The notes beneath the pieces are model-generated. The model did not search any database, was not told where the DNA came from, and worked only from the letters and a program-made list of their open reading frames with translations. Both the position numbers and the translations under genes were made by a program. From Staphylococcus phage LY01, in sequence record OR836606.1: 64,000 nucleotides of DNA, one strand, 5' to 3'. Shown piece by piece: positions 26,458 to 60,386 of the stretch. Position 1 is the stretch's first letter, and each line of letters opens with the position of its first letter.

Positions 26458-26527
26458 TCTCCATTTAAATTATTTGTATAATAAATATTTCATTATTAAT
26501 ACATCGTTATAATATATATTTAAAAAT

Positions 26528-40963: not shown

Positions 40964-41764
40964 TTATTTAAAATTATTTTTCACTAAATATTCTCTAACA
41001 AATTTTTCATCGGTAATTTCTTCAAATATATCATCTAAATCATCTTCAAAAATATTTATTTTATAACTATGATGATTATTATTAATAACATCATAATCAT
41101 AAACATTTAGCATATCTAAAAAAGAGGCTTTAGAAAAGAAAAATTCAATATTAAAATGATGTCTTAATGATTTTAATAAAATAAGATAATTATTAAAGAT
41201 ATCTTTAATTAAATTCTTAAAATCATCATGGTGCTTTATATTTTGATCTTGAATTTCATTTAATAATTTTTCAAGATTGTCAACTAATATCATTCGTTTT
41301 ATTTCTATTTCATCTTCTTCGTTTAAAATATCTTTTATAATACTATTAAATAAAATTTTATCAATTTTATTTTTTATAGGTTTGATTGTAAATAGTATTT
41401 TATCATTAACACTATTTTTATCTATACTAAAAATAGATTTAGTAGAATCTCTTTTAAATTTAAAATCTGCAATAGTTATAAGTGTTTCAAATGAATTTTT
41501 ATTATTAACATTGTAAAGAACAGGAGGTAGACATCTTGGTAAAAATTTTAAATTGCCTTTAATTGCATTATCTTCTTTTTTATAATGAACATCTATTGCA
41601 AGAGTTTCATATGAATCTTCTTCAGTCTGATTAATTATTTTTTCAGCTATTATTAAAGGTAAATAGTCATATAAAAATGAACCTCTATTATTCTTATCAA
41701 CTTCAAATAATTCATCATTTATTTTACATAAGAAATATTTTTTATCACTTTTCATTGCACCCAT
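40964..41764 (-). CDS. NNFK-tail paralog family member
   Basis: N-terminus MGAMKSDKKYFLCKINDELFEV; C-terminus HFNIEFF...IFEEITDEKFVREYLVKNNFK. Confidence 0.6.
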   Translation of the reverse strand: MGAMKSDKKYFLCKINDELFEVDKNNRGSFLYDYLPLIIAEKIINQTEEDSYETLAIDVHYKKEDNAIKGNLKFLPRCLPPVLYNVNNKNSFETLITIADFKFKRDSTKSIFSIDKNSVNDKILFTIKPIKNKIDKILFNSIIKDILNEEDEIEIKRMILVDNLEKLLNEIQDQNIKHHDDFKNLIKDIFNNYLILLKSLRHHFNIEFFFSKASFLDMLNVYDYDVINNNHHSYKINIFEDDLDDIFEEITDEKFVREYLVKNNFK

Positions 41765-41778
41765 TATATTGATCTCCT

Positions 41779-42558
41779 TTATTTAAAATTATTTTTCACT
41801 AAATATTCTTTAATAACTTTCTCATCTGTAATTTCTTCAAATACTCCAGATATTTTATATTCATCAAACAAATTATAATATTCATCATCTATATCATCAT
41901 TATTTCTTTTATCATTCTCTGGTATGTGCGAGAAACAACTATCTGATACAAAGAATTCTATATCAAAATGTGATCGGATTTGTGATAAAATTTCTAATAT
42001 ATAACTATTTACTTCGGTTAATATTTGGTATAAATCTTTATTATTTTTAAAATTAGTTTCTTTACTATTATTATAATCTGATATTAGATTTTCAGGACTT
42101 TCTATAGGTAAATTAAAAGGTATTTTTAAGATATTATCATTATCTAATATATTACCAATGACATTATTGAAAAATATTGAAGTTACATCTGGATTATATA
42201 TGGGTTCAATTCTAATTTTCAAACAATTTTTATTTTCTATTTTTTCATTGAATATAATATCAAAATCAATATTAAGTATATTTATTCCTTCTTTATTACC
42301 AACCTTATATTCTAAAAATGGAAAAATATTGCCAACTGATATAATTCCTGACCATAAATTATTTCCATTACTATCTTCACCCACAATCTCTTCAGAAAAT
42401 ATATCTATTTCTTCACTTTTTATTTGTAAATTAGGAAGTAAATAAGGTAGATATAAATGATCTTCATTTATACCATATCTAGATAAGTTATTAACTATAA
42501 ATAACTCATCTGTCATTTTACTTAAAAAATATGTTTTATCACTTTTATTTATACTCAT
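41779..42558 (-). CDS. NNFK-tail paralog family member
   Basis: MSINKSDKTYFLSKMTDELFIV ... HFDIEFF ... VFEEITDEKVIKEYLVKNNFK. Confidence 0.6.
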   Translation of the reverse strand: MSINKSDKTYFLSKMTDELFIVNNLSRYGINEDHLYLPYLLPNLQIKSEEIDIFSEEIVGEDSNGNNLWSGIISVGNIFPFLEYKVGNKEGINILNIDFDIIFNEKIENKNCLKIRIEPIYNPDVTSIFFNNVIGNILDNDNILKIPFNLPIESPENLISDYNNSKETNFKNNKDLYQILTEVNSYILEILSQIRSHFDIEFFVSDSCFSHIPENDKRNNDDIDDEYYNLFDEYKISGVFEEITDEKVIKEYLVKNNFK

Positions 42559-42574
42559 TAAATTGATCCCTCTT

Positions 42575-43279
42575 TTATTTAAAATTATTTTTCACTAAGT
42601 ATTTTTTAATAACTTTTTCATCTTTAATTTCTTCAAATAATCCAGATTCATTAAGTAAAAATTTATAATCAAATATAGAAAATGATGTGTCTTCGTGTTT
42701 TTCCATTTTTGTATATATTCCTGTCATAAAATATGCTAACTCTGATTTCCTAACATTTAATTTTAAATTTCCATAACTCATTAAATCCATAATATAATTT
42801 AAAAGAGTTTTATTAAATTCTTTGACTAGTAATTCTAATCCTTCAAAATTTTCAATAGTGTGCCTTATAGTATCACTTAAGATTAAGTATTTTCCATCTT
42901 CTCTATTTTCTATTTCGTAAATAAAAGATTCTTCTGGAAAATCTTTTTTAAATATTCCTCCATCTAGAATAGAATTAAATTCTAAATTAAAATCTGTTTT
43001 GCAAATTTTTAAATTTCTTACATAATCATTACTTATTATATTAGAATTTTGTTTGATTTTAACTACTTTATCATTAAAAAGAGAATAGGTTAAAGAAAGT
43101 TCAGATCGGTAATTAAGATATCCAGGGTCTTTATTCAAATTCTCATTTTTATTAATATATTTCATACACATTTTAGTAAATATTTCAGTCAATTTATCTA
43201 TACGAAAGTCAGTTCTATCTATATCGAAGTGAAGTATTTCTCCATCTAATTTATATCTATAGTAATTATTATATTCCAT
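42575..43279 (-). CDS. NNFK-tail paralog family member
   Basis: C-terminus LFEEIKDEKVIKKYLVKNNFK. Confidence 0.6.
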   Translation of the reverse strand: MEYNNYYRYKLDGEILHFDIDRTDFRIDKLTEIFTKMCMKYINKNENLNKDPGYLNYRSELSLTYSLFNDKVVKIKQNSNIISNDYVRNLKICKTDFNLEFNSILDGGIFKKDFPEESFIYEIENREDGKYLILSDTIRHTIENFEGLELLVKEFNKTLLNYIMDLMSYGNLKLNVRKSELAYFMTGIYTKMEKHEDTSFSIFDYKFLLNESGLFEEIKDEKVIKKYLVKNNFK

Positions 43280-43300
43280 TATGAAAATCCTTTCTTTATA

Positions 43301-44158
43301 TTATTTAAATCCTTTTCTAACTTTAAACGCTTTCATTTCTTTTTCTGTTTTAATTTCTTTAAATAAATTATTTTCATCACTTTCTATTAAATCTAATATA
43401 TTAACTAAACCATAATTTTCATTATAAAAATCAATATAAAATTCTATATCATCTTTATACATATATTTAATTTCATAAAGAGACATTAATATACTAAGAT
43501 TATTCTGGTATAATATGATAAAGAATAAATCCTTAAAATCTTCTATAAATTTAATAATAGGATTTTTATCAAATGCTGATATTGGAAAACTTAAATCCAT
43601 AAATGGTTCATTGCCATATTTGATCTCATATAAATTCTTTTCAAACAATTCAATATTATTTACAAGAGCTCTCATTTTTTCATTTATTCCTTCATTAACC
43701 AAATTATTTTCATTTACTAAATCATTAGTAATTACATTGAAATATTCTTTATATAATGAATTATCAAAATGAAAATCTAATTTAAATTCTCCACTTTCAA
43801 TAGTTTCAATTTTATTCATTCTAGCAATATTAAAATTAATATGAAAATTAGTATTAAATTTTTTAAGAGTATCATTTTTATTATGTGTATTTCTAAAATA
43901 AATATCGCTATCAATTTCTTTATAATGAAAAATCATATAATCTTCTTCTTTAGAAATATTATCTATGAAAGATTTAGCATATCCTTTGCTACTTAAAAGA
44001 TTATTAATATCCATAGTAGTTAATACGTATGCAATATATTCATATCGGTTAAGATAATTTCTATCAATTTCAATTAATTCATCTCTCTCTTTATCTATAA
44101 AATATTTCATATTAGGAAAATCCTTTCTTAACTTTAAATTTTTTAATTTCTTTCTCAT
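43301..44158 (-). CDS. NNFK-tail paralog family member (divergent)
   Basis: C-terminus LFKEIKTEKEMKAFKVRKGFK; N-terminus overlaps the previous member by 47 nt. Confidence 0.55.
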   Translation of the reverse strand: MRKKLKNLKLRKDFPNMKYFIDKERDELIEIDRNYLNRYEYIAYVLTTMDINNLLSSKGYAKSFIDNISKEEDYMIFHYKEIDSDIYFRNTHNKNDTLKKFNTNFHINFNIARMNKIETIESGEFKLDFHFDNSLYKEYFNVITNDLVNENNLVNEGINEKMRALVNNIELFEKNLYEIKYGNEPFMDLSFPISAFDKNPIIKFIEDFKDLFFIILYQNNLSILMSLYEIKYMYKDDIEFYIDFYNENYGLVNILDLIESDENNLFKEIKTEKEMKAFKVRKGFK

Positions 44159-44888
44159 CAGTTATTTCTCTAAAATATGCATCAACATCAAAATCATTTA
44201 AACTAATATACTTATCATATTCTTTTTCAAAACTAAAATCTTTTTCTTTTTCCCTTTCTTTACCACTAAAATTCCAATCTGTTGCAATAAGAAATTCAAT
44301 ATCTGAATGATCTTGTATCTGATCTAGCAATTCAAAAATTAATTTATTTGTAGTAGTAAACATCTTGTGTAAATCTTCCTTGAGTTCTAAAGGTCTTTTT
44401 CCCTTTTGTATATGACTTTTAAAATATTTTAAAAAGCGAATCATAACTTCTTCATTAAAGTCATGCGGTAAATCTAGTTCACCATTATCATCAAATATAC
44501 CAGATCTTTTACTAAATAATCTCTTCCCTATTTCACTATTATTATATAAAGGAATAGCTTTAAACTTAATATAATTATCGTCTTCTTCATTTAGACTAAA
44601 GCGTATTATAGCGTATATAAGAAGTTCCATTTTATTTTTCTTACCTTTATATTTGTATTTAACTTTGGGGAAAGCATTAAAATTTATTCTAAGACCAACT
44701 AAACCATTGTCATCATGTTCTTCATGAGATATAAGAAAACTCTCATTATAATTTATTTGCATTGTAGTGAATAGCTCACTTAAAACTTTCCACTTAAAGT
44801 CAAAATAGAGTGTTTCATTTTCATTGAAAGTTAATTCTATAAATTCATCTTTCGATTTACTAATGTAGTATTTGTTAATTTTCTCCAT
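44112..44888 (-). CDS. NNFK-tail paralog family member (divergent)
   Basis: HSDIEFL ... YFREITDEKEIKKFKVKKGFS. Confidence 0.55.
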   Translation of the reverse strand: MEKINKYYISKSKDEFIELTFNENETLYFDFKWKVLSELFTTMQINYNESFLISHEEHDDNGLVGLRINFNAFPKVKYKYKGKKNKMELLIYAIIRFSLNEEDDNYIKFKAIPLYNNSEIGKRLFSKRSGIFDDNGELDLPHDFNEEVMIRFLKYFKSHIQKGKRPLELKEDLHKMFTTTNKLIFELLDQIQDHSDIEFLIATDWNFSGKEREKEKDFSFEKEYDKYISLNDFDVDAYFREITDEKEIKKFKVKKGFS

Positions 44889-44992
44889 TTACTTAACTCC
44901 TTTTATTATAATAATCCCAATACTAATTTAATAGTATTGGGATAACATTTTTATAATATATATTTATTCTAATTTTCAGAATTAGGCGATAC

Positions 44993-45370
44993 TTAACTAT
45001 TTTCCATTTCTTCACGTTGTCTTTTTAATCTATCAAGAACTTCTTTTTCTTCTACATTTTGATTTAATTCTGGTTCAATTAATAATTCTTTTTCTTTCAT
45101 ATCTTCTAATATATTTAATCCTTTTCCAAACTCTGGAGATTCATTAGGAGGATTAAATCTATTGTGTTTATTATCATAGAAATTTAATTTAACTAGATCT
45201 GAATTAGGTTCAATAACTACCTCAGCTTCTATGAATAAAATATCATAAGGGTCAGTGACACGTTTTCTATATAGCAAAGCTTTAGTATAAGAATCTTTTT
45301 TAAATCCATAATCTCTTAATTCTTGTTTAATATTTTCTTTACTTAAGTTTAATTTGTATTCTGATAACAT
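44993..45370 (-). CDS. hypothetical protein
   Basis: 125 aa ORF interleaved in the paralog array. Confidence 0.4.
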   Translation of the reverse strand: MLSEYKLNLSKENIKQELRDYGFKKDSYTKALLYRKRVTDPYDILFIEAEVVIEPNSDLVKLNFYDNKHNRFNPPNESPEFGKGLNILEDMKEKELLIEPELNQNVEEKEVLDRLKRQREEMENS

Positions 45371-45519
45371 TACTTATTGCACTCCTTTTCATTGTATTCA
45401 TGAACTTCATTAAGATGTCTATGGTCATGATAAATAAACATGCAATCTTCTAATTTAGGTTCATATCTCTTTTTAGTTAATAATTCATATAATCTTTTTA
45501 ACATGATAAACCTCCTTCC

Positions 45520-45861
45520 TTAAAATGATACGTGTAGAAATATATAAAAATCATTCTTAACTCTATCAATTTTATATATTTCTGACATAAGAGCATGATA
45601 ATAAGATAAATCATAATAAAAGTTATCTTCTTTTAAGTCATCAATCATTAGATCTCTTAAAGTTTCATTATCTATAACAATAATATCATCATGCGGAACT
45701 TTTGATTTAAACTTTAATGTTTTATAAAGTTCTTTAGGTGTATTAAAATATAATTCAAATAAATGGTTATCTTCTTTTTTATATCGTTCTTGATCAAGAT
45801 ACCATTGTAAATCTCTTTGTTTACTTTTATTAATTCCGTATATACTTAAACTAAATTCCAT
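45520..45861 (-). CDS. hypothetical protein
   Basis: 113 aa ORF. Confidence 0.4.
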   Translation of the reverse strand: MEFSLSIYGINKSKQRDLQWYLDQERYKKEDNHLFELYFNTPKELYKTLKFKSKVPHDDIIVIDNETLRDLMIDDLKEDNFYYDLSYYHALMSEIYKIDRVKNDFYIFLHVSF

Positions 45862-45915
45862 ATTCTCTCCTCCGATATAATATAGCTCCGTAATACATTA
45901 TAGAGATAAAATTAA

Positions 45916-46695
45916 TTAAAATTCAGCTTTTTGATATAAGTTTCCGAATTCATCTTTAACTATATCATCTCTGCCCTCAACTTCTTCAAATACTAAATCT
46001 CTGGTCATGGTAAATAATTCTGGGTATTCTTCTTGAAGTTCATCTTCTTCAATAATATTCATATCCATATCAGCAACTACTAATTCATATTCTTCAGGAG
46101 AATCCCCTAAAACAAAGAATTGTAGTGAACCTTTATAGACTTTTAATATAGAAGATAAATCTTGTTGATCTAATTCATTAATTTCTTGACTCAATTCTTC
46201 TTTTCGATCCAATTCTTTATTAATAGATTTTTCTTCTTCATCCAATTGTAATAATTTTGCGTCTAATTCTTCTCTAAAATCATTGTCTTCATCATTTACT
46301 TCTTCAGGTTCCATCATACTGTCTAGAATGTCTTTATTAGACATTGTATTAAGTTGATTAAGTACATTCTTAGCAAGCTCTTTATAATTATCTTCTGATT
46401 CATCATCAATAGACATTTTCTGAGCTTTCATAGTTAAGTCTATAATATCTTTCTTAACATTTTTCATTTGCATAATAGTATCTTTAATTTCTTTCTCTAC
46501 ACTAATAATGTTAGCTTCCATATTAGATACAAATGTATGTTTAGGATATTTCAGATTCTTAGTTAGATCCATTATACGATGTTCTAATTGAACTTCTTTC
46601 TTTTCCATTTTATCCTTAAATTTTACTAGCATTTTATATTCTTCCATCATATCATTAATTTGTGATATCAAATCAATTTCAACATTATCGGACAT
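45916..46695 (-). CDS. hypothetical acidic coiled-coil protein
   Basis: 259 aa ORF. Confidence 0.4.
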   Translation of the reverse strand: MSDNVEIDLISQINDMMEEYKMLVKFKDKMEKKEVQLEHRIMDLTKNLKYPKHTFVSNMEANIISVEKEIKDTIMQMKNVKKDIIDLTMKAQKMSIDDESEDNYKELAKNVLNQLNTMSNKDILDSMMEPEEVNDEDNDFREELDAKLLQLDEEEKSINKELDRKEELSQEINELDQQDLSSILKVYKGSLQFFVLGDSPEEYELVVADMDMNIIEEDELQEEYPELFTMTRDLVFEEVEGRDDIVKDEFGNLYQKAEF

Positions 46696-46751
46696 TTATT
46701 TTTTCAACTCACTTCCATCATATTAATTAATATAAAAGAAAGTTAATTAAA

Positions 46752-47390
46752 TTATTTAAAATTTTCTTTAACCGCTAACTTTTTTATTTCTTTTTCATCT
46801 TCTACCTTTTCTAAAATCTCATAAAGTTCATTAAAAGTATATTCATTTAAAATTAAATCTTTTCTAAATTCTTGACTGGTTATGAAATCGACATTATCTT
46901 TTTTTGAATTAACTGTGTATACTAATAAACTTATATCTTTTTCGTTATTAAAAAGATTAACTATATTTGAAATTAATTCGTATTCTATATTATTTATATT
47001 TTCAATTTGAATATAAGTTACATATGAAAATACATTACCGCTAATTAAAGTTTTAAAAGGTCCTATATTTTTACATTCTTTATCAATATTACGTAATAAT
47101 GAAAATACAAAATATAATTCAAAACAACCATTACCTTTATCAGTTATATCTATATAAAAACCTCTAGTTCTATAATAGGTATTTTTGTCCTTTATCAAAA
47201 TACCATCATTTCTTAACGAAAATGAGCCATTTTCATCTATCTTATTTTTAATATTGTTAGAATTAAATAACTCTTTAAATAATTCAATATTTAATTCTTC
47301 TTTACTAGTATCTTTTTTAACGGAAACTATGTCACCTCTATCATCAATCTTATAAAAATCATGATTTTTGATATATTGATTTATACTCAT
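46752..47390 (-). CDS. NNFK-tail paralog family member
   Basis: C-terminus LYEILEKVEDEKEIKKLAVKENFK. Confidence 0.55.
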   Translation of the reverse strand: MSINQYIKNHDFYKIDDRGDIVSVKKDTSKEELNIELFKELFNSNNIKNKIDENGSFSLRNDGILIKDKNTYYRTRGFYIDITDKGNGCFELYFVFSLLRNIDKECKNIGPFKTLISGNVFSYVTYIQIENINNIEYELISNIVNLFNNEKDISLLVYTVNSKKDNVDFITSQEFRKDLILNEYTFNELYEILEKVEDEKEIKKLAVKENFK

Positions 47391-47406
47391 TAAGTTATTC
47401 TCCTTT

Positions 47407-48015
47407 TTATTTAAAGTTTTCTTTAGTTAGATATTTTTTAATTTCTTTTTCGTCTTCTAACTCTCTAAAATATGCATGAGGTTCAAATATATCAATACCA
47501 TTTATAAAGATTTTAATATTTCCATTATTTTCTTCTTTAAGCATTTCATCTAGCAAATTAGATAATTTATCTAAATCATTTTCATGTTCATCATAACCTA
47601 TAATATTTTCTTTATGAAAATTTTTCATCATGATTATACTGACACCGAGTGAATTCTTATCAACTTCTAAAAGTTCTTTATCCGCATGTCTACTAATAAA
47701 AGCCCTTAATTGCAAAGTTACTTTATTATCTTTAATTTTTGCATATGAGAATTCTAAGAATTCTACTGGAAGATTCTTTCTAACTTCATTATACATATTG
47801 CTGAAATATATATTTTCACTATCAATTAATTCAAAGAGTAAACTTAGATTATAATAAAGGTCATCATTTAAACTATAGTAATCTAAATTTCTTTCTATTA
47901 ATTTTTTATAATAGAGTTTATTTATCTTATCTTTAATATCACTTTCATCTTTACTAATTATAAAAAGCTCATTAATATCTTTATTATAATAGAATTTATT
48001 TTCTTTTAAAATCAT
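47407..48015 (-). CDS. NNFK-tail paralog family member
   Basis: C-terminus YFRELEDEKEIKKYLTKENFK. Confidence 0.55.
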   Translation of the reverse strand: MILKENKFYYNKDINELFIISKDESDIKDKINKLYYKKLIERNLDYYSLNDDLYYNLSLLFELIDSENIYFSNMYNEVRKNLPVEFLEFSYAKIKDNKVTLQLRAFISRHADKELLEVDKNSLGVSIIMMKNFHKENIIGYDEHENDLDKLSNLLDEMLKEENNGNIKIFINGIDIFEPHAYFRELEDEKEIKKYLTKENFK

Positions 48016-48120
48016 ATCTTTTCCACTCCCTTAATTAGATTAATATAGAGATAATGAATTAATATAATTCATTATCTCATTTTTATAATATATATTTACA
48101 TACATTTTTCATCTAAATAA

Positions 48121-48165
48121 AAGAGATAACGGACAATTATAGTCCGTTATCTCATCTTTTTAAAT
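48121..48165 (-). terminator. rho-independent terminator of the beta-prime N gene
   Basis: On the minus strand: gagataacggactataattgtccgttatctc hairpin followed by a T-run, directly after the TAA stop. Confidence 0.55.
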
Positions 48166-48198
48166 TTATTCTTTAGTTAAAGAGTATAAAGCTTGTAC
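48166..48198 (-). CDS. rpoC: RNAP beta-prime N gene, last exon (VQALYSLTKE*)
   Basis: Joined to the previous exon it gives ...NESNMLVQALYSLTKE, aligning to E. coli ...PSQDVVLGLYYMTRD. Confidence 0.5.
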   Translation of the reverse strand, partial: VQALYSLTKE

Positions 48199-48327
48199 CA
48201 TATTATTTATGATAATTAGACTATATCTTCTTAGTAATATATTTAGTCGTTGAACAACTTATATTAAGTTGATGCTGATTAATCTAATAAGATACTTCCA
48301 GCAATTAATATTATTTATTGAGAGCAT
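48199..48327 (-). mobile_element. mini group I intron (minus orientation)
   Basis: Family core elements; 3' end ...ATAAATAATATG. Confidence 0.55.
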
Positions 48328-48461
48328 ACAAGCATGTTACTCTCATTACCCAAATTACGTACTGAATTACCAGTGTAGTTTAGGTAGTTAGTTTTCTTAT
48401 TAAGAAGTTTATTAGCTTCTTTATTAGCCTCTACAGTCCAGAGAGATCTGATAGAAATCAT
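48328..48461 (-). CDS. rpoC: RNAP beta-prime N gene exon (DMISIRSLWTVEANKEANKLL...)
   Basis: D-MISIRSLWTVEANKEANKLLNKKTNYLNYTGNSV aligns to E. coli [36 protein letters not shown]. Confidence 0.6.
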
Positions 48462-48621
48462 ATCCATTTACGTTATCTATATTAAGATAATATAGATCAG
48501 ACTATATCTTTACTTTAATAAGCATATTATATTTAGTCGTTGAACACTATTTGTAGTGATGCTGATTAAGATAATAATCTTTCCCAGCAATTAATAATAT
48601 TTAAATACGGCAATATAAATT
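48462..48621 (-). mobile_element. mini group I intron (minus orientation)
   Basis: Family core; 5' end GGT|AATTTATATTGCC..., 3' end ...AACGTAAATG|GATATG. Confidence 0.6.
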
Positions 48622-48630
48622 ACCGTCAAA
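48622..48630 (-). CDS. rpoC: 9-nt micro-exon TTTGACGGT (Phe-Asp-Gly of the catalytic NADFDGD loop)
   Basis: The splice model gccgaT | intron | TTTGACGGT | intron | GATATGATTTCT reads ...LGADFDGDMISIRSL, reconstituting the universally conserved ADFDGD. No other junction choice gives the motif. Confidence 0.5.
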
Positions 48631-48811
48631 CGTTTATGTTATCTATAATAAATGATATCATAGACCAGACTATATCATCATCTCAATTGAGATATATTAT
48701 ATTTAGTCGTTGAACAACTTATATGAAGCTGATGCTGATTGCTCTAATAAGAGTTTTCAGCAATTAATAATATTTTCATTCTTAAATCACTTTAAGAAGC
48801 GACTTTTTCAA
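48631..48811 (-). mobile_element. mini group I intron (minus orientation)
   Basis: Family core. Its 5' leader GTCGCTTCTTAAAGTGATTTAAGAATGAAAATATTATTAATTGCT is shared with the copy at 49393-49550. Confidence 0.6.
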
Positions 48812-48825
48812 ATCGGCACCTAACG
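48812..48825 (-). CDS. rpoC: 14-nt micro-exon (..LGAD) of beta-prime N gene
   Basis: cgttaggtgccgat lies between the large intron and the next mini intron and supplies G-A-D of GADFDGD. Confidence 0.4.
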
Positions 48826-49200
48826 CTATTTAATTTATAATTAAATTTGGACTATATCATAAACCTAAATATTAGGTTCCCTCACACTTCGGGAATTCAT
48901 TTCCCTACTCTACTCACTTCGTTATAGTATTTCAACTATACTTATTCTCTATATAAGAGTTACATTTATTGTTTTCGATAGTCTCTGAACGTTTATCCAT
49001 CATGTGGATACTTCGCTGCTAGACTTTCCCATTATTAAATACCCTTAGCATTTTCAGCATAGGTCATCAAAGAGATTTTTTCTGTCTTTCGACTGCATGT
49101 CACGCTATCCATTACTGGCATACGTTGTAGCTCTCTAAGCATTAGGGTTTACAAGCAATTCATAAGGTATTTTTTATCCTATATTACTATAAGACTGGAG
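48826..49200 (-). mobile_element. larger group I intron (about 370 nt, no ORF), same R/S core with expanded peripheral domains
   Basis: The minus-strand reading contains GAATTGCTTGTAAAC (P), GTTCAGAGACTATCGAAAAC (R-like) and GATATAGTC (S). It is about 80% identical to the segment at 56265-56640. The 5' boundary is uncertain (about 49190-49215). Confidence 0.55.
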
Positions 49201-49392
49201 CGTAAGTTACTCCGGCATAACTGTTGTGTATAATAGCGGTATCTATAAATACATCTTCATCAACAGGATATTCATGAACAACTTTAGGATAATCTTTAAG
49301 TACAATATCGTCTAAAGTAATTTCAGGAATTGTATCAACTGTAGTCAATATTTTAATTTTGGCAGGTGCAACATTCAAGAAATTTTCGCAAA
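49201..49392 (-). CDS. rpoC: RNAP beta-prime N gene exon
   Basis: (C)ENFLNVAPAKIKILTTVD...NSYAG; follows region ...HVVYSRYPINTLV, which aligns to E. coli EHPVLLNRAPTLHRL. Confidence 0.45.
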
Positions 49393-49550
49393 CTATATTA
49401 AATTAATACAGATCAGACTATATCATTACCTACTTTTAGGTATATTATATTTAGTCGTTGAACAAGTTTAATTGACTTGATGCTAATTAACCTATTAAAG
49501 TCTTTTAGCAATTAATAATATTTTCATTCTTAAATCACTTTAAGAAGCGA
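49393..49550 (-). mobile_element. mini group I intron (minus orientation)
   Basis: Family core elements; 3' end ...TTTAATATAG. Confidence 0.6.
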
Positions 49551-50712
49551 CCAGTGTATTAATCGGATATCTTGAATAAACCACATGCTTATCTTCACAT
49601 ATTTCTGTAGCAGCTATATAAAGTAAATCAATTACAGTAAAAGTTCTACCTAAAGTATTTTCAAATAATTTAACTTTATGACGTTTACCTTGTCTATCAT
49701 TTACATATATAGGACTAAATCTTTCATTAGGATCCTTAATAAAGAATTCTAACATATTCTTAATAGCTTTATCATCAAACTGTTCATATACTTCTTCTAA
49801 TGATAATTCATTTTCATCAGTTCCAGTAGCGGTTTGGAAGGCATCTTTGTGGATTTCAATAAAATCGATAATGTATTTGCTAAAGAAAGGTAAGAATAAA
49901 GTAACTAATTGAGTTAATGGTACCCCTAACTGACCAAATTCAATTTGCATTTCATCCCATTTATTTGAATTAATCTTAGGTGAAGAAATAACTGAGCGAG
50001 TACTGTTATCTACCGTCTTACCTAAAATATTTCTTTGCATCATACCAGTTTTACCTGATAGTTCTCCTGAAGTTAATTTAACGTATATTTCAAATAATTT
50101 ATTTTGAATATTATATTTAGTCGTATTAGCTACAAAGTCAAATGAATTAAAACTAATTGAATCTACAGATCTTAAGATGCTTGCATACATATCATTTATT
50201 TCTTCAGTATCTTGAATTTCCCCTGAAGTTTCATTAGGATTAAAGTCACGATAGAAAGCAGGTATTACGAGCCATTTATCTGTGAATATTCTATCTTTAG
50301 GAGTATTTTTAAGCATATCAATTTTTTCATTTCGGATACGAGAATCATTTTTTCTAAATTTAAGATTTTCATAATTATCGTATAAGAAATTTAATCCAGT
50401 TTCACCATTTTCATCTGGAACTAATTGTCCTTTCTCAATTTTAAAGTAATCAGAACCTTGAATACATAGATCTATATTCTTATCTAATTCTCTCATAGCT
50501 TTATAAGCTACAGGATTCAAGTATTTGCCACCTAAATTAATCCAACCTATATTATTCTTTCTTTCATCAGTACCTATTAAACCAAATATTTCATATGAAA
50601 ATAAACCATCTTCTTTAGGTAAAGTTCCTGAATCAAAGAAAATAGGATTAGTAACTTCTTTAGCTCCATAAGCTGTAATAACTTGATCAACATTAACCAT
50701 ATCTATTTTCAT
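49551..50712 (-). CDS. rpoC: RNAP beta-prime subunit N-terminal exon
   Basis: LPKEDGLFSYEIFGL aligns to E. coli KPERDGLFCARIFGP. GWINLGGKYLNPVAY aligns to GHIELASPTAHIWF. WLVIPAFYRDF aligns to WMILTVLPVLPPDLRP. NILGKTVDNSTRSVISSPKI aligns to [21 protein letters not shown]. Confidence 0.75.
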
Positions 50713-52863: not shown

Positions 52864-53050
52864 TTATTTAAAAATGTATCTTAAAAAAGATACATTTCTA
52901 TTACAATTTTATAATATATATTTTAACATAAATTAAAAATTTATGCAAGAAATTTTATATGAAAGTTGATAAATTTTTCTAATTATATAAAATCAATTAT
53001 TTTATCTGAATACATACCAATATTTTCCAATATGTATCCAGATAAATTAT

Positions 53051-53751
53051 TTAGAATTTAATCATATTAGATACAAATGAACTATTTGAAGATTCCAATA
53101 CTCTAACACCAATAGATTCAATAATATCTTTACCTGGTTTAATATGATCTTCAATCATACTATCATAGTCAATAAAAGGTCTAAACTCTTCAGGAATTGT
53201 ATTACCTTCAACTGCAATTACATTTAAACCGTTTTTAACTAAACTTTCATTCTTAAATACTTCTCTAAATCTATCTAAAGTATCTTCATCAGTTATCTTA
53301 TTTTTAATATCTCCAAATGTACTAATATTCAATTTAACTGCTAATATCTTAGCAGGTAATGCTATTTCTTTTTCTGGGAACATTATATTCCATGCTAAAG
53401 CAGCTCTATATGCCATTTGAGAATAAGGGTCTTTATATACCTCAGCATTATTAGCTTTAAACGGTTTTAAGAATTCGATTTCTCCATTATCTAATGATTT
53501 CTTAATCATTTCTTCTATATCTTTAAATTTACGTATTATCTTAATACGATCTACACCGGTTTTATTTTCTAAAATATCTTTTTGTAATATTTCAGTAAAT
53601 AGTTCTCTAATACGTTTATTAGTATTAACTTTTCTAATAGCCATACCTTTAACATCTAAATCTGGAGGTTGAATTAAATTACCCTCTTGTTGAATTACTG
53701 ATGATGCATAAGTTTTCTTTTTATCAGTTGTTAATTGTTTATCAAGTAAAA
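53051..53751 (-). CDS. DNA polymerase part 2, C-terminal exon
   Basis: The frame is open upstream of the annotated Met. ...DKKKTYASSVIQQEGNLIQPPDLDVKGMAIRKVNTNKRIRELFTEILQKDIL aligns to T4 gp43 ...[51 protein letters not shown]. Confidence 0.6.
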
Positions 53752-53893
53752 CATTTTTATTAGCTTTATTAAATTAATAAAGATTAGACTATATCTTATA
53801 CTTATATTAAGTACATTTATATTTAGTCGTTGAACTTAATTTCTTAAGCTGCTGATTTAATTAATGAACTATTCCAGCAATTAATAAATTTAT
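53752..53893 (-). mobile_element. mini group I intron (minus orientation) in DNA polymerase part 2
   Basis: Family core elements; 3' end ...GCTAATAAAAATG. Confidence 0.55.
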
Positions 53894-54161
53894 CTTTCTG
53901 TATATCGCTATACAACGGAGCATTAACTTGATAATACTCATTTTTCATTGATATTAAACCTAAATGTTCTTCCTCTAATCCTACATCTTTACAGAATCTA
54001 TAGTAAGACAATTCTAATAATTTAGTTATTTGATAGTTAATAATAGATATATTACTTACACGTTGTTCTAATTTATCCTCTAAACCATTCTCTGCAATTG
54101 GAAAATCTTCAGGTTTTAAAGATTTAAATTTTTCGTATAACGGATCTAAGTGAACAAAGTT
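53894..54161 (-). CDS. DNA polymerase part 2 exon (after motif C)
   Basis: NFVHLDPLYEKF... follows DTDS directly. T4 gp43: DTDSVYVCVD. The annotated ATG is the ATG of the intron 3' end ATAAATG. Confidence 0.6.
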
Positions 54162-54315
54162 CATTTATGTTAGCTGTATCAAATATAATACAGATCAGAC
54201 TATATCTTCTTTAGAAATATATTTAGTCGTTGAACTTAATTTCTTAAGCTGCTGATTTGATTAATAAATCATTCCAGCAATTAATATTTTTTATTGACAG
54301 CAATTTTTTATCACA
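54162..54315 (-). mobile_element. mini group I intron inserted right after polymerase motif C (DTDS|)
   Basis: Family core elements. Read-through tail ...NCWNDLLIKSAA of the upstream ORF is intron-encoded; the same tail occurs on ORF 53844..54164. Confidence 0.6.
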
Positions 54316-54888
54316 ACTGTCAGTATCTATAGTTAATACGCTTCTACGTTTCTTGTAATTCATTCTATACATTCTATTATAATCTTGATAATTATATATA
54401 ACCCAATCTTTTAATATTTCAAATAATTCATCTAATAATGGAATCATATCTTCAGGAGGATCATTTGGATCTAAGAAATCTTCTCTGCCAGTCATTTTAC
54501 TAATTTTATTATCAAATATATCGGTATGATCAATTAACCCAAATAAATTATTTTTGAAATATACTTTATTTTTATCTTCTTGACTTAATTTACTAAATAC
54601 TTCTTCTAACTTAAGAAAATCTTCTTCACTATAATCTTCTTCAACATTAGAAACTAAACCTTCTAAAATTTCTTTATCAGTTGGAATTGATTTTATCTTA
54701 ATATCATGATCTTCATATTTTTCACTAATTATTCTTAATATATAATGATATATTTCATCAATCTTCATGAAAAAGATTTTACCGCCAATAAATCTTTCTA
54801 AAGCTATCGCTGAAGTAGTTACAATATCAACTGCTATATAAATTCGTGAATTTAATTTAATTAATTCGAATTTATTCGACTTCGTCAT
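54316..54888 (-). CDS. DNA polymerase part 2 exon containing motif C (LTIDTDS)
   Basis: RSVLTIDTDS aligns to T4 gp43 FIAAGDTDS. The true 5' end of the exon is the IStron 3' splice site near 54889 and is not determined. Confidence 0.55.
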
Positions 54889-55030
54889 TACTTTTACTTA
54901 CTTTGCACTTTAAGTTTTTCGTTATAAACTACTTCAACATAAAGTGTCAACCAAAGCAGAGGTTAAAGCTCTTAAGTCATCACATTTGGACATTCAAGAG
55001 AATTTAAATCTAGTTAGCCTGCCCAACAAA
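54889..55030 (-). ncRNA. putative omega-RNA / IStron right end of TnpB-2
   Basis: GC-enriched segment ...gctgctgtcaacctcaaaatgtacggtaagcgttttgttgggcaggctaac... overlaps the tnpB 3' end and extends beyond it. Confidence 0.4.
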
Positions 55031-56158
55031 ACGCTTACCGTACATTTTGAGGTTGACAGCAGCGTTATAATCTCTATCCATTTTATTTCCACAATCACAC
55101 TTATACCATCTATCTGATAACTTCATCTTATTTTCTTTAGTTAAGACTTGACCACAATTAGAACATAATTGAGTTGATGGGAACCATCTATCTGCTACAA
55201 TAATAGTATTACCATTGCTTTCAGCTTTTTGTTTTAATAAAGTTCTGAATTGTCTCCAATTCATTGCAGAAATAGATTTAGACAAATTTCTATTTTTAAT
55301 CATATTTGAAACTTTAAGATCTTCAATTGTAATATACTGATAATTTTTAATTAAGTTAGTAGTTATTTTATGAAGATAATCTTTTTTAATGTTATTAATT
55401 CTCATCCATATTTTTTGTATTTTGGTTTTCAATACATTGTATTTGTTAGAACCATAAACTTTACGAGATAATCTTTTTTGATAGTACTTAATCTTATTGT
55501 ATAGTGGAATCAATTTATCATTTAATGAATGATATTTCTTAAATTTACCGAAATCATCATTAATGATAGCTAAATCTTTTACACCTAAATCAATACCAAC
55601 ATGGCTATTGTTATGAATTAAGCTCTTATTATTATCAACTTTCATTACTATTGAAGCGAAATATTTTCCAGCATATTTAGATATAGTAACTTCTTGAATG
55701 GAATTATAATTAAACGGGATAGATTCTTTCATTTTAATTAATGAATTAATTCCTTGAAGTTTTAATTTATTATTTTTATCGCCTTTAATTTGTAATGAAT
55801 AATTATTCTTCTTATAGAACCTTGTACTTAATTTAGAATGTTTTTTAGATTTAAATCTCGGATACTTACCGTAACCTTTCCACATCATATTAAAAGCTTT
55901 ACCTAAATCTTCAGTTGCTGTGTCCATAACTTGAGATATTTGATCTTTTTCCCAATCTTCTTTACATTTTTTAAGTTCATCACGAACTTTCCTATGTGTT
56001 GGTTTTGGAAGAGATGTATCAAGTTGATGAGCATTCCACATTTGTTTCCATTTATTAAGCCCTTTATTATAAATATATCTAGAATATCCAAATGCTTGAT
56101 TAAATACTTCTTTTTGTTCTTTATTTGGTTTCAATTCGATTTTAATAGATTTGTACAT
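55010..56158 (-). CDS. tnpB: TnpB (IS200/IS605 OrfB-family RNA-guided nuclease), no TnpA
   Basis: MYKSIKIELKPNKEQKEVF (N-terminal HTH); RuvC-I VGIDLGVKDLA; RuvC-II ITIEDLK; Zn-finger CSNCGQ...CDCGN; RuvC-III DRDYNAAVNL. Confidence 0.85.
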   Translation of the reverse strand: MYKSIKIELKPNKEQKEVFNQAFGYSRYIYNKGLNKWKQMWNAHQLDTSLPKPTHRKVRDELKKCKEDWEKDQISQVMDTATEDLGKAFNMMWKGYGKYPRFKSKKHSKLSTRFYKKNNYSLQIKGDKNNKLKLQGINSLIKMKESIPFNYNSIQEVTISKYAGKYFASIVMKVDNNKSLIHNNSHVGIDLGVKDLAIINDDFGKFKKYHSLNDKLIPLYNKIKYYQKRLSRKVYGSNKYNVLKTKIQKIWMRINNIKKDYLHKITTNLIKNYQYITIEDLKVSNMIKNRNLSKSISAMNWRQFRTLLKQKAESNGNTIIVADRWFPSTQLCSNCGQVLTKENKMKLSDRWYKCDCGNKMDRDYNAAVNLKMYGKRFVGQAN

Positions 56159-56724
56159 GTGATTTCACCTCCTTCAAATATATAATATATACTTAAAGTT
56201 AGTGATGAATTTTAATTAAATTAAACTCACGAATTCCTGATTTAGTGTTTCCACATCAGTTAAATAGCAAGACTATATCATATTCTATCAGAATGATAGA
56301 ACCCTCGCACTTCAGGAATATTATTTCCCTACTCTACTCACTTCACATAGTATTTCAACTATGCTTATTCAGGCGTTAATCCTGTGCTTTCGATAGTCGT
56401 TGAACGTTCATCCATCATGTGGATGCTTCGCTGCTAGATTTTCCATTAGTCCACCCTTAGCACTTAATTTACATTAAGCTTTTATTTCAGCCTAGGTAAT
56501 CTTAGAGTATTTTTTCTGATTTTCATCTGCTTTCACGCTATCCATTACTGGTATACGTTGTAGCTCTCTAAGCTTTAGGAGTTTACAAGCAATTCACGAG
56601 GTTTGCTCACTTCTTTCATGAATTAAACTAACTTTAATTCACTATGAAGTAAGGGAGTTTTGATTAACTATTTTAAAATAATTTAAGTGAGCAATTCGTG
56701 TTAAATCACTTAAATTATATTAAA

Positions 56725-57234
56725 CTAAAATAGTTTCTTTTCTCCACTATAAGTAGTTGCTGGACCTGAATTAGCATCATAGAATGTACTATTTTTCTGT
56801 ATCATAGCACCGTAATAACTGTTAGCTAAGATCTTAATTGTTTTTTGTTCATTCATATATTTATCATGTAAAACATCATCTTTACCTTTATAAATAAACA
56901 TATTGTGCTTAGCTACTTTACGAGAATCTATAAAGTCTTTTAACATTTCCGCATTTAAATTTTTTCTTTGTGATTGAGGCTGATAAATAGAACCAGAACC
57001 AGTTACAATTAAATTATTATTAATAATTTGTCTTAAGGTTGTATCTACATTCATTTTTTGTCCTGATATTTCTATTAAAGCTGGATCTAAATGTTTTTTA
57101 ATATATTCTCTACAGGCATTAATTAGTTTCTCATCATCAATATCAGGTTTTCTTATTTTAATTAATTTAATTAAATTTTCTAAATAACCCGTTATAGCCC
57201 TTTTACGTTCATATTTATTATCTTGATTAGACAT
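56725..57234 (-). CDS. DNA polymerase part 2, first exon (starts with its own Met; polymerase motif B)
   Basis: QKTIKILANSYYGAM aligns to T4 gp43 motif B KILINSLYGALG. GPATTYSGEK aligns to ATAITIFGQ. N-terminus NKYERKRAI aligns to T4 QRKDWKKKM just after the part-1 split point. Confidence 0.65.
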   Translation of the reverse strand: MSNQDNKYERKRAITGYLENLIKLIKIRKPDIDDEKLINACREYIKKHLDPALIEISGQKMNVDTTLRQIINNNLIVTGSGSIYQPQSQRKNLNAEMLKDFIDSRKVAKHNMFIYKGKDDVLHDKYMNEQKTIKILANSYYGAMIQKNSTFYDANSGPATTYSGEKKLF

Positions 57235-57361: not shown

Positions 57362-57664
57362 TTGAAAGGAAGATCTTCCGTTATGAAAAATAATATTACT
57401 CCACTAGAAGAGCAAATTATGCAAGCAACTGATGAAGCTCTTTTACGTGAACAAAATATCATGCGTTTAGATGAACGTACTAAACGTAAGCGTAGATTAA
57501 ATCAATTAGCCTTAGTTGCTGCTAAAGAAGCTCAAGATCCAATCTACTTTAAATATCAAAAAGCTGCTCGTGCTCGTAAAAAATGGCGTGATATAATTCG
57601 TCAAAAATATGCCACTAAAGCCAAATTAAAATTAGCAGAATTAGATAATGTGAATAAAAAATAA
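57362..57664 (+). CDS. small basic protein (100 aa), lone plus-strand gene in a minus-strand block
   Basis: K/R-rich; uses CGT Arg codons, unlike its neighbours; a bidirectional terminator follows. Confidence 0.4.
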   Translation: MKGRSSVMKNNITPLEEQIMQATDEALLREQNIMRLDERTKRKRRLNQLALVAAKEAQDPIYFKYQKAARARKKWRDIIRQKYATKAKLKLAELDNVNKK

Positions 57665-57667
57665 TTA

Positions 57668-57712
57668 AAATTTATCCCAATACCTATTAATGCAATAGGT
57701 ATTGGGATTATA
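57668..57712. terminator. bidirectional rho-independent terminator
   Basis: tcccaatacctattaatgcaataggtattggga hairpin between convergent genes. Confidence 0.5.
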
Positions 57713-58372
57713 TTATTTAAAATTTTCATTTATTTTATATTTTTTAACTTCACTTTCAGAAAGTTCTTCAATTATACTATTCCTTCTGGTATTAAATACA
57801 ATTTCAATATCTTCTAAATAAAATATATTACTATCTTCTATCTTCCCATTTTTAAATAAAGATAGATTAAATGAATATATTTTCCATCCTAAAATAAATT
57901 TAATTTTGTTTAGAATAGAGCAAACTACATTTTCAAAATTATCTTTATCTGTATGGATTATAACATCGTTATCCGAATATTCTATATGAAATTCTTCATT
58001 TAAGTCTATTAAAGATATTTTAGTTGCATGTAAATCATAATATACACCTAAATCTAATTTCAATTCAATATCAGAACGATACTTAGTGAATAATATAGAA
58101 ATAAAATTATTATTATCAATATCACTTGAAAATACTAATGACACATCATTTTTATTTAAATTATTCGAAATAAAATCTTGGATTAAAATTTTAAAATATA
58201 AGAAAAAGCTGATTTTATCATTTAATTTAAACACATTATTTTTTCTTAAGTTTACATCTTTAGAAAAATTGAAGTTCAAATAATTAATTTTTAATCTATA
58301 ATAAAAAGAATCATCGTTGAATCTCAATAAATTTGTATAGTGATTTATTAATTCATCTCTAAATTTTTCCAT
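57713..58372 (-). CDS. NNFK-tail paralog family member (remote copy)
   Basis: C-terminus EDIEIVFNTRRNSIIEELSESEVKKYKINENFK. Confidence 0.5.
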   Translation of the reverse strand: MEKFRDELINHYTNLLRFNDDSFYYRLKINYLNFNFSKDVNLRKNNVFKLNDKISFFLYFKILIQDFISNNLNKNDVSLVFSSDIDNNNFISILFTKYRSDIELKLDLGVYYDLHATKISLIDLNEEFHIEYSDNDVIIHTDKDNFENVVCSILNKIKFILGWKIYSFNLSLFKNGKIEDSNIFYLEDIEIVFNTRRNSIIEELSESEVKKYKINENFK

Positions 58373-58394: not shown

Positions 58395-59108
58395 TTATTC
58401 TAATTCTAATCTTTCGTATCCTAAATAACCTTTAGCTTCTTGTATATTATTGTACTTATTAATTACATTAACTAAACTATGTCTTAATCTATGATAAATA
58501 GGTCCTTTAAGACCATCTATTTCATAATCAATGAACATGATCCATTTATTTAATAATTGATCATCAATTTCAATTATTAAATTACTATTCATCAAATATT
58601 CAAATAATGATGTTAAATGAGGATTAGACATTAAACCTTTTAATCTATCCAATGGAACATCTTCTCTAAAATTAGTATATAAAAAATAAGCTAAGTCTTT
58701 GCTATCAGTTTCTTTTATATTAGATTTAATATTTTTTAATCTAGTAATAAATAAATTTTCATTACTGATAGTTTTATCAATTGGATCAATCATTTTAAAT
58801 AATCTAGAGATAGAAGCTTTTCTTATTAAATTAGTTAGAAATTCATCTGGTTTTTTATTTATAAATAAACCATTTGATTCGAAATTATCTATAACAAAAT
58901 CTATAAATCTATTATATTTATCTAATTCTTTTTTAGTAAATAGAGTAGTATCTAAGTTGTTATTAATATAACAACTTAAAATATTACTTTCTATTAATAA
59001 TTGAAATGAAACCATATTAAGCGCAGAAGGATCATCTAAATTAATACTCATGATATGGTCTATTCTAATATCATTTCTATTTTTTAATTTTTCTTCTTTA
59101 ACTAGCAT
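58395..59108 (-). CDS. hypothetical protein
   Basis: 237 aa ORF. Confidence 0.4.
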   Translation of the reverse strand: MLVKEEKLKNRNDIRIDHIMSINLDDPSALNMVSFQLLIESNILSCYINNNLDTTLFTKKELDKYNRFIDFVIDNFESNGLFINKKPDEFLTNLIRKASISRLFKMIDPIDKTISNENLFITRLKNIKSNIKETDSKDLAYFLYTNFREDVPLDRLKGLMSNPHLTSLFEYLMNSNLIIEIDDQLLNKWIMFIDYEIDGLKGPIYHRLRHSLVNVINKYNNIQEAKGYLGYERLELE

Positions 59109-59122
59109 AAGCGGATTCTCCT

Positions 59123-60313
59123 TTAAATAAATGTCTTTTTAATTGTTTCATTCATAATTAATCTCTTTAATTTTCCTTTAGACATTTTAACAAGTGTAGA
59201 TGTTTTACTGTATTTCTCATTTGAAATATTAAATGTATTGTCTTTCATATTCATGTATTCTTTAACAAATTGTCTTTTCTGATTTTCCGTAAAATTATTT
59301 TCAATTAATTTTAATATCTCTTTAACTGCAATATCAGTATATTTATTAGCTGATTTAAAAGATAATAAGAATGATACCTCTTTATAAATATTATCTATTA
59401 ATGTAAAGAAACCAATTTTTGAAAAATATTTAACTTTATCTTCATTCTCAGCTTCCTGTATTTTATCGGTAAAATAATTATAATTTATTCCATTATTATA
59501 TCCTAAGAATTCATGTCCATATAAATTATCTATACCTAATACAAATCTTTCATATAAATAATATTTATTAAATTCATCATATTTAAGACTATTTATTTTA
59601 GACTCCATTAATAAATCTGCGTACTCTAGATCTTCTTTACTATTAATATGATTATTAAATAATTTATAAAAATTGTTTATAATTTTTAATTTAAGCACAT
59701 TATCTTTATGTGAAATATCCAAATCTATTAAACTAGATAATAGTTTCATAAATTTCTTTTTATCACCATTAAACGATAATTTAGTATCTAATAATTCTTT
59801 ATTTAAATTAAAAAATTTATTATTACTTATTTCATCCATATCATTAATGAATTCATCTATATATTCTTCTTTTAATAATCCAAATGAAAAATTTTCATAA
59901 GAAGATTTAAAACTATAAAGGAATTTAATGTTTTTAATATCATTATCTTTACAAAATTTATTTATATAAAATATTAAAGGTAATTGAGATATATTTAAAA
60001 TTATATTTCTATCTTCTTTATAACCATGCATAATAATATCTTTAATAACATTCTTTAAAAATGCTTTTAGTGATTCATTATCTGTATAGTAATAATTAAA
60101 TACAAAACTTATTAAAGAATTACCGTTAAAATTATTTAATATAATATTATCACTTATTGAAATATCAATCTTCTTTTCGAATACAATATCAATATCTGGT
60201 ATTTTTAATAATTTTTCTTTATCAATTTCATTAAGTTCATGATCTTCACTAACATCAATATAACCAATATCATAGTTAATAAAGAAATCTTTCATTGATT
60301 CACTCATATCCAT
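59123..60313 (-). CDS. hypothetical protein
   Basis: 396 aa ORF. Confidence 0.4.
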   Translation of the reverse strand: MDMSESMKDFFINYDIGYIDVSEDHELNEIDKEKLLKIPDIDIVFEKKIDISISDNIILNNFNGNSLISFVFNYYYTDNESLKAFLKNVIKDIIMHGYKEDRNIILNISQLPLIFYINKFCKDNDIKNIKFLYSFKSSYENFSFGLLKEEYIDEFINDMDEISNNKFFNLNKELLDTKLSFNGDKKKFMKLLSSLIDLDISHKDNVLKLKIINNFYKLFNNHINSKEDLEYADLLMESKINSLKYDEFNKYYLYERFVLGIDNLYGHEFLGYNNGINYNYFTDKIQEAENEDKVKYFSKIGFFTLIDNIYKEVSFLLSFKSANKYTDIAVKEILKLIENNFTENQKRQFVKEYMNMKDNTFNISNEKYSKTSTLVKMSKGKLKRLIMNETIKKTFI

Positions 60314-60386
60314 TTCACTCTCCTATTAATTAAAAATTAAATTGAGTTGATAATTTAACTTACCAACTCAATTATATAATATATAT

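Follow-up and report, generated by a model that had tools for sequence, protein, structure and literature searches.

The 64,000-nucleotide stretch of Staphylococcus phage LY01 analysed here (record OR836606.1; hereafter the window) carries eight minus-strand genes whose products differ over most of their length and all end in the same module of about 20 residues. A typical product consists of a divergent body of 150-250 residues, usually with an N-terminal beta-hairpin motif, followed by the terminal module F-x-E-I-T-D-E-K-E-I-K-x-Y-L-V-K-x-N-F-K-stop. We tentatively regard these genes (members 1 to 8, Table 1) as a lineage-specific, fast-evolving family of early accessory genes, in which variable bodies are attached to a C-terminal handle constrained at the protein level and whose products would act as host-directed effectors; of the explanations weighed below, this is the one that we favour, with a confidence slightly short of even. 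LY01 is a Staphylococcus jumbo phage of the AR9/PBS1-like type; one of its proteins is 100% identical to member 1, and the DNA of the window region, with a G+C content of 20-28%, is 81-89% identical to that of nine Staphylococcus jumbo phages: S6, PALS_2, Madawaska, MarsHill, Machias, PB50, DC4, SA1 and AH12.

The shared C-terminal module

The consensus given above is found in all eight window members, of which GVFEEITDEKVIKEYLVKNNFK is an example of the tail peptide. A more relaxed pattern, [FIL]-x-[EK]-[IVL]-x-[DN]-[ED]-K-x-[IV]-K-x-[YFL]-x-[VI]-x-x-x-F-[KSR]-stop, is matched by the eight and by each of the 88 members that were collected from eight genomes, including LY01, by iterating a hidden Markov model (HMM) over the syntenic regions of seven relatives. 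In every one of these proteins the module stands at the extreme C-terminus, in agreement with a preliminary description of the window, made from its letters alone, which had reported a highly conserved tail. The tail is indeed the most conserved part of the proteins, with 2.4 bits per column over the last ~20 residues and about 1.1 in the middle; a second, smaller peak (1.65 bits) covers the first ten columns. An HMM built from the tail alone and run against the six-frame translation of the window matches the eight members only, with expectation values (E) of 1e-13 to 4e-8. The next match (17868-18578, E 0.004) is the C-terminus of a laminin-G-like protein and was dismissed as chance. The idea that the tail might be a low-complexity coincidence, rich in lysine and asparagine, was tested and is rejected because of this terminal position in 88 of 88 proteins, the degree of conservation and the specificity of the tail HMM. 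The tail is predicted to form a short strand (F-x-E-I) and then an amphipathic helix that ends in F-K-COOH.

The constraint acts on the protein and not on the DNA. Between paralogs, the proportion of synonymous differences in the tail (pS) reaches 0.51-0.69 and that of nonsynonymous differences (pN) is about 0.30. This bears on an explanation in which the conserved element would be the nucleic acid, the 3' end of the gene and the spacer being kept for translational coupling, as an RNA structure or as a recombination site, with the peptide as a by-product. The compactness of the array lends it some colour: stop codon, Shine-Dalgarno sequence and next start are tightly packed, and two of the junctions are nearly repeated in DNA (see below). 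However, synonymous sites near saturation under a retained amino acid sequence largely refute it, and the tail also terminates genes that are not followed by another of the family, namely members 1, 6 and 8 of the window and S6_0400, S6_2010 and S6_2540 of phage S6. It is the least probable of the explanations considered here.

The coordinates that the preliminary description gave for the eight open reading frames (ORFs), of 202-285 amino acids, are confirmed with the exception of the start of member 4, and the genes align end to end. This ORF stands, but its start had been placed at 44158 and is almost certainly 44110 (MKYFIDK...), one base past the stop codon of member 5, which gives a protein of 269 amino acids (aa). 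The AAAGGA ribosome-binding site for this start is encoded by the terminal K-K-G-F codons of member 5, and the short form is the one annotated in the relatives. The family HMM found no further member in the six-frame translation of the window. The proteins are of 200-270 aa with pI values of 4.4-5.7. An N-terminal motif had been described as common to the family; in the form K-Y-Y-x-x-K-x-x-D-E-L-x-E-I, seven of the eight members carry it, but member 8 does not. We regard its likeness to MKTYQEFIAE, the capsid-targeting sequence of T4, as a coincidence.

Divergent bodies

The eight genes had been called paralogous. They do form a family that shares a tail; homology over the whole length, in contrast, can be demonstrated for some groups only. 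BLASTP links members 1 and 2, 2 and 3, and 2 and 5 within the window, and no other pair. When the last 26 residues are cut and the bodies are compared profile to profile with hhalign, one chain and two pairs emerge among the orthogroups (24, defined at 50% identity): members 1, 2 and 5 with orthogroup 15, orthogroup 11 with orthogroup 13, and member 6 with orthogroup 12 of the relatives (P 1e-14 to 1e-33; 3e-18 for the bodies of members 1 and 2, and 7e-23 for member 6 and orthogroup 12). Most other pairs are not linked.

The tail reaches further than the bodies. A distant metagenomic contig (L010), whose SbcC and g142-like proteins are 61-62% identical to those of LY01, bears at the corresponding place at least 14 genes of 176-273 aa that end in the tail, and an HMM built from the bodies only recognises one of 14 of these proteins. 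Phage S6 encodes four tail-bearing proteins outside the array, S6_0400 (75 aa), S6_2010, S6_2530 and S6_2540, and the body-only HMM recognises none of the four. Since the bodies of L010 and of these S6 proteins mostly escape recognition, the tail has, on this evidence, lasted far better than the bodies; its presence also extends beyond the array. The LY01 counterparts of the four S6 genes lie beyond the window.

A more radical explanation is that the last 16-20 residues serve as a tag for sorting or docking, portable between proteins, which marks diverse early proteins for one partner, of phage or host origin. In S6 the set so marked would be at least 17 proteins; it would include some bodies with no relation to the rest and a protein as short as 75 aa. 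The partner might be a protease, a chaperone, the replication or transcription machine, or a compartment, and if a single conserved partner did recognise the tail peptide, this would amount to a phage-specific system for addressing proteins. We consider this doubtful, though deserving of attention.

Predicted structure and searches for known families

An AlphaFold2 model of member 2, obtained from a 17-sequence alignment, has a mean predicted local distance difference test score (pLDDT) of 71.6 and a predicted template modelling score (pTM) of 0.74. It shows, from the N-terminus, a hairpin, a helix and a five-strand meander, then several helices, including a long one (174-198), the conserved D-I-E-F strand, a linker of lower confidence and, in the tail, a strand (240-243) and a helix (246-258). 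No fold in the PDB matches it. In BFVD, the only matches are members of the family, and the independent models of a member-1-like and a member-5-like protein superpose on it with a template modelling (TM) score of ~0.7. The model of member 7 is poor (pLDDT 39.8), with its hairpin, helix, five-strand meander, helices, strand and helix in the same order as in member 2.

These models speak for the main rival explanation, according to which the N-terminal hairpin and the C-terminal strand-helix are the invariant core of one ancient domain, with the middle as a tolerant surface insert. The tail would then be kept for folding only, and the proteins might have a single job, for example as a structural or scaffolding part of a replication or transcription factory. 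That both termini are the conserved parts fits this explanation, and so do the fairly confidently modelled tail of member 2, the order of elements in member 7 and the superposition of the BFVD models. Against it, the same tail is found on S6_0400, a helical protein of 75 aa, and on bodies that have no N-terminal motif (S6_2010, member 8); most orthogroup bodies, stripped of the tail, have no similarity to one another in profile-profile comparison, and the turnover in copy number described below is hard to square with one essential structural job. On balance a single ancient fold seems unlikely, although it has appreciable weight.

The earlier failure to recognise any known domain holds under searches of Pfam, PHROGs, NCBIfam, PADLOC and PDB sequences, none of which gave a match above threshold; the PADLOC defence models matched no family for the eight proteins. 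Several weak candidates were set aside. The PD-(D/E)XK nuclease family DUF4420 reaches 12.6 bits with member 4 in Pfam, against a cut-off of 27 (E 0.079), and matches no other member; matches to SiaC and Phr are far below their cut-offs. The SAP/HeH DNA-binding motif consists of two helices joined by a conserved loop. The tail pattern T-x-x-x-E-[IL]-[KR]-x-x-L-x-[KR]-x-G/N-[FL], which we take to resemble the first helix and turn of SAP, served as a lead only: the chain terminates at the turn that follows the first helix, leaving no second helix, and Pfam gave no match to the motif at E up to 1. The uracil-DNA glycosylase inhibitors Ugi, SAUGI and p56 are small acidic proteins with an Ung-binding strand motif; no match to them was found in Pfam, PDB sequences or PDB folds for the family members, whose sizes and pI values are given above.

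Promoters and predicted early expression

In the Bacillus phage AR9, the injected virion RNA polymerase uses early promoters that have been mapped by differential RNA sequencing and primer extension, with the consensus AAATATATATTAT-N6-G (PMC5312081). A search for this type of promoter, which also recovers AR9's annotated early promoters, gave nine matches with at most one mismatch in the window, compared with 0.88 expected. An exact copy stands at the head of each of the three units containing family members, each predicted transcript starts with a stable hairpin, and promoter and hairpin recur at equivalent places in all relatives. Because exact promoters with start hairpins head every unit containing a member and are conserved in this way, all eight genes are predicted to be transcribed early. 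A scan for sigma-70 promoters was uninformative at 22% G+C (164 sites, 175 expected).

The exact 13-nucleotide AR9 early core occurs five times in the window, always on the minus strand: at the heads of the three units and at 26502-26521 and 52904-52923. At most of these five sites a stable hairpin of -12 to -17 kcal/mol begins at the predicted start or within 4 nucleotides of it, an arrangement that all relatives keep.

Predicted early expression also tells against the suggestion that the members are virion proteins, packaged and ejected, with the tail as a capsid-targeting or packaging signal comparable to that of the T4 internal proteins, and with arrays like the inner-body families of phiKZ. 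There is something to be said for it: T4 internal proteins are targeted by a short terminal peptide on otherwise dissimilar proteins, in Madawaska and Machias the adjoining SbcC-like gene carries the annotation 'virion associated', and the small plus-strand gene beside member 8 matches a virion-protein PHROG and has a DC4 orthologue found in virions. But the members lie behind early promoters and not among late structural genes, their shared peptide is C-terminal with no evident protease site, and none of them was detected in the DC4 virion proteome, a shallow set of 15 proteins. A role as packaged proteins is thus very unlikely.

Distribution and turnover

All 88 collected genes are intact ORFs with an in-frame terminal tail. 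Each of the eight genomes has 8 to 14 copies, LY01 being the poorest, and the orthogroups are patchily present among the eight phages. LY01 lacks the four short members that S6 has between the g142-like gene and member 7, as well as the members located upstream of the second promoter in S6. Member 8 has orthologues at the equivalent position in S6, DC4, PALS_2 and PB50. In a census of the stitched S6 genome, the 13 members that the HMM recognised lie without exception at 58.3-77.9 kb; together they make up ~8.6 kb, or ~3% of the 267-kb genome. The family thus shows tandem copies, copy numbers that vary between close relatives and faster evolution than neighbouring core genes, as multigene expansions do.

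A ~3-kb block that separates the promoter of member 7 from the RNA polymerase gene in S6, DC4, PALS_2 and Madawaska is missing from LY01. On it, three or four small ORFs accompany two further members of the family.

Outside this group the family was searched for at several depths. The syntenic site of AR9 holds no counterpart that we could find. A tblastn search of 50,697 phage records with member 2 and with the tail returned only nine Staphylococcus phages, and an exhaustive profile search gave 14 hits among 1.84 billion representative proteins, whose readable sources are this phage group or similar short metagenomic contigs. By these searches, the family is confined to Staphylococcus jumbo phages of the AR9/PBS1-like type. 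A strict back-translated DNA pattern of the tail, which was matched in every relative genome checked, found nothing in IMG/VR, in JGI metagenomes or in 185,579 species genomes (GTDB); these collections seem to lack the clade, so absence elsewhere is established for near-consensus tails only.

Age, selection and exchange

The preliminary description took the array for the product of recent tandem duplication. This is not supported: orthogroups are common to several phages, the bodies have mostly diverged past recognition by BLAST, and tail pS between paralogs is 0.5-0.7. With synonymous sites of the tail near saturation, the copies are mostly old. The accompanying claim that junction DNA is conserved is, beyond the Shine-Dalgarno sequence, true of two junctions, from member 3 to member 2 and from member 2 to member 1, which are 80-90% identical over ~150 nucleotides comprising the tail, the spacer and the head of the next gene; the junction from member 7 to member 6 shows this weakly and the others do not. 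Such identity at two junctions points to local gene conversion or unequal crossing-over of these blocks.

An alignment had been proposed as a check for a gradient of conservation between middle and tail, taken as a sign of diversifying selection. The gradient is there, but the selection is not supported, omega (the ratio of nonsynonymous to synonymous rates) being below 1 throughout. In the comparison of LY01 with S6, omega is 0.20-0.54 for the members (0.20 for member 5); the core genes nearby, SbcC and the pieces of polymerase and RNA polymerase, have values of 0.03-0.16. When 179 orthologous pairs are pooled, omega is 0.36 in the first 25 codons, 0.46 in the middle and 0.26 in the tail. The raised omega is best read as faster evolution under weaker constraint, positive selection not being demonstrated.

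Raised omega and frequent differences in presence between close relatives would also be expected if the array were neutral baggage, a set of decaying duplicates drifting to loss. Yet 88 of 88 copies are intact with the tail in frame at their end, omega (0.2-0.5) is well below 1, and a relative with core proteins of only ~61% identity still has the family. Decay is therefore a highly improbable explanation.

A tentative model

In the explanation that we favour, the injected virion RNA polymerase would transcribe the genes minutes after infection from AR9-type early promoters, and the proteins would form, within the host cell, a set of effectors directed at the host, serving takeover or counter-defence. 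Their different specificities would come from the variable bodies. The shared tail would be a common handle that either docks all members on a single conserved partner or, with the N-terminal hairpin, completes a fold common to them, and recombination between conserved tail-spacer-head blocks would make the arrays grow, shrink and swap members. Early promoters, restriction to a clade, turnover and the raised rate all fit host-directed effectors, and a role in host takeover or counter-defence is plausible.

Several points weigh against this model. The early class is assigned from a promoter motif that was defined in a Bacillus phage. The SA1 RNA-seq study, the only transcriptome of this clade, lists none of these ORFs in its accessible text and assigns SbcC, the gene downstream, to its 'middle' class. 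The modelled strand and helix of the tail, with a mean pLDDT of 87 over residues 241-250, are as compatible with an integral element of the fold as with a free docking peptide, if not more so. No likeness to a known anti-defence or takeover protein was found in Pfam, PHROGs, NCBIfam, PADLOC, BFVD or PDB sequences and folds. Finally, with omega below 1 everywhere, the genes bear no gene-level signature of an arms race.

Early accessory families are the usual place of host-range and counter-defence determinants, and these phages are considered for therapy and transduce plasmids across Staphylococcus species. Should the tail turn out to be nothing more than an element of the fold, the family would rank as a commonplace orphan expansion, albeit a large one. 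If it is a portable tag instead, the members could include the missing Ung inhibitor, or more than one, of Staphylococcus uracil-DNA phages, reported as unidentified (PMC10303552). The gap makes clade-specific early proteins worth assaying, but nothing ties the family to that role. The family is not mentioned in the genome papers on MarsHill, Madawaska and Machias (bioRxiv version), PALS2 and DC4 or in work on jumbo-phage comparative genomics, the SA1 genome paper lying outside this search, and no paper on LY01 was found.

Neighbouring elements

The preliminary description placed the array next to replication and recombination genes; it sits among replication and transcription genes. Table 1 lists the members with the elements around them.

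Table 1. Family members, associated signals and neighbouring features (window coordinates unless stated otherwise)
Feature	Position	Strand	Size (aa)	Remarks
Member 1	40964-41764	minus	266	Long type; family HMM E 1e-39; tail ...IFEEITDEKFVREYLVKNNFK, then stop
Member 2	41779-42558	minus	259	Long type; modelled by AlphaFold2
Member 3	42575-43279	minus	234	Body without tail weakly linked to other members
Member 4	43301-44110	minus	269	Revised start
Member 5	44112-44888	minus	258	Most conserved orthogroup; tail ...YFREITDEKEIKKFKVKKGFS, then stop
5' hairpin, first unit	44914-44943	minus		-16.9 kcal/mol; kept with the promoter in every relative
Early promoter, first unit	44946-44965	minus		AAATATATATTATAAAAATG; exact AR9 match; predicted start G 44946; heads members 5 to 1
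Three non-family genes between sub-arrays (44993-46695)	44993-45370, 45520-45861, 45916-46695	minus		45916-46695 is a homologue of AR9 g142
Member 6	46752-47390	minus	212	Short type
Member 7	47407-48015	minus	202	Short type
Comparison for the ~3-kb block	48015-48200			Versus S6 66.3-68.9 kb (L008 16336-18883)
5' hairpin, second unit	48048-48078	minus		Upstream of members 7 and 6
Early promoter, second unit	48078-48097	minus		Exact match; heads members 7 and 6 and the three non-family genes
Terminator-like hairpin	48123-48153	minus		Closes the upstream RNA polymerase gene unit
Five group I intron-like elements	48200-49588	minus		Compact; within ~1.4 kb
DNA polymerase gene pieces	56725-57234, 54244-54888, 53844-54164, 53051-53644			Fragmented family-B catalytic gene
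TnpB / IS605 OrfB-type gene	55010-56158	minus		Full gene; HTH_OrfB_IS605, OrfB_IS605 and Cas12f1-like TNB domains (E 3e-21)
Early-promoter-like site	56175-56194			One mismatch; directly upstream of the TnpB gene
Small gene beside member 8	57362-57664	plus		Sole plus-strand gene of the stretch; PHROG 26909 'virion structural protein' (E 1e-17); DC4 orthologue UFVDC4_00019 detected in virions
Terminator-like hairpin	57674-57708	both		Bidirectional; directly downstream of member 8
Member 8 (remote copy)	57713-58372	minus	219	No N-terminal motif; tail ...IIEELSESEVKKYKINENFK, then stop
Early promoter, third unit	60369-60388	minus		Exact match; heads 59123-60313, 58395-59108 and member 8, then a strong hairpin
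S6 tail-bearing genes outside the array (LC680885.1)	47703-47954, 213491-214075, 243537-244097, 244084-244647			Tail ...K-x-Y-L-V-x-x-N-F-K

The intron-like elements split the 3' part of the gene for the N-terminal portion of the virion RNA polymerase beta' subunit into very short exons. Their scores with Rfam model RF00028 are 54.6, 43.4, 39.9, 30.9 and 27.2 bits, the first being above the gathering score of 50; they were found by a local E-value scan, and a whole-window scan at the gathering score missed all five. None of the five contains a homing-endonuclease ORF. The TnpB gene lies inside the fragmented DNA polymerase gene, and the small plus-strand gene converges on member 8 at the bidirectional terminator.

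Comparison with known systems

The cluster of genes 37 to 60 (gp37-gp60) of SPO1 is an early host-takeover module of a large Firmicute phage. Like the LY01 family, whose early class is predicted, it consists of early genes of unknown fold that stand beside replication and transcription genes in a narrow phage lineage; its products, in contrast, are mostly unrelated small proteins that share no tail, and no sequence similarity between the two was found.

The T4 internal proteins and Alt are late, packaged proteins that share an N-terminal capsid targeting sequence, cleaved by the prohead protease. They resemble the family in having a short terminal peptide on otherwise dissimilar phage proteins, which suggests a common handle for one partner. 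The class to which they belong is marked by late expression, presence in the virion and a cleavable N-terminal signal, and the LY01 family falls outside it: its module is C-terminal, its promoters are of the early type, and its members were not detected in the (shallow) DC4 virion proteome.

Further close parallels are lineage-specific expansions in large viruses, such as the multigene families of African swine fever virus (ASFV). Bacillus phage G offers another, a zinc-ribbon expansion of roughly 35 copies (Iyer et al. 2021, PMC7824862). As in LY01 and its relatives, many tandem copies, varying in number between close relatives and evolving faster than core genes, occupy the variable parts of a large genome and have presumed accessory or host-interaction roles. 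The Staphylococcus phage family differs from these expansions in that its fold has no known match and many of its bodies are not demonstrably homologous, and what unifies it is a module of 20 residues at the extreme C-terminus.

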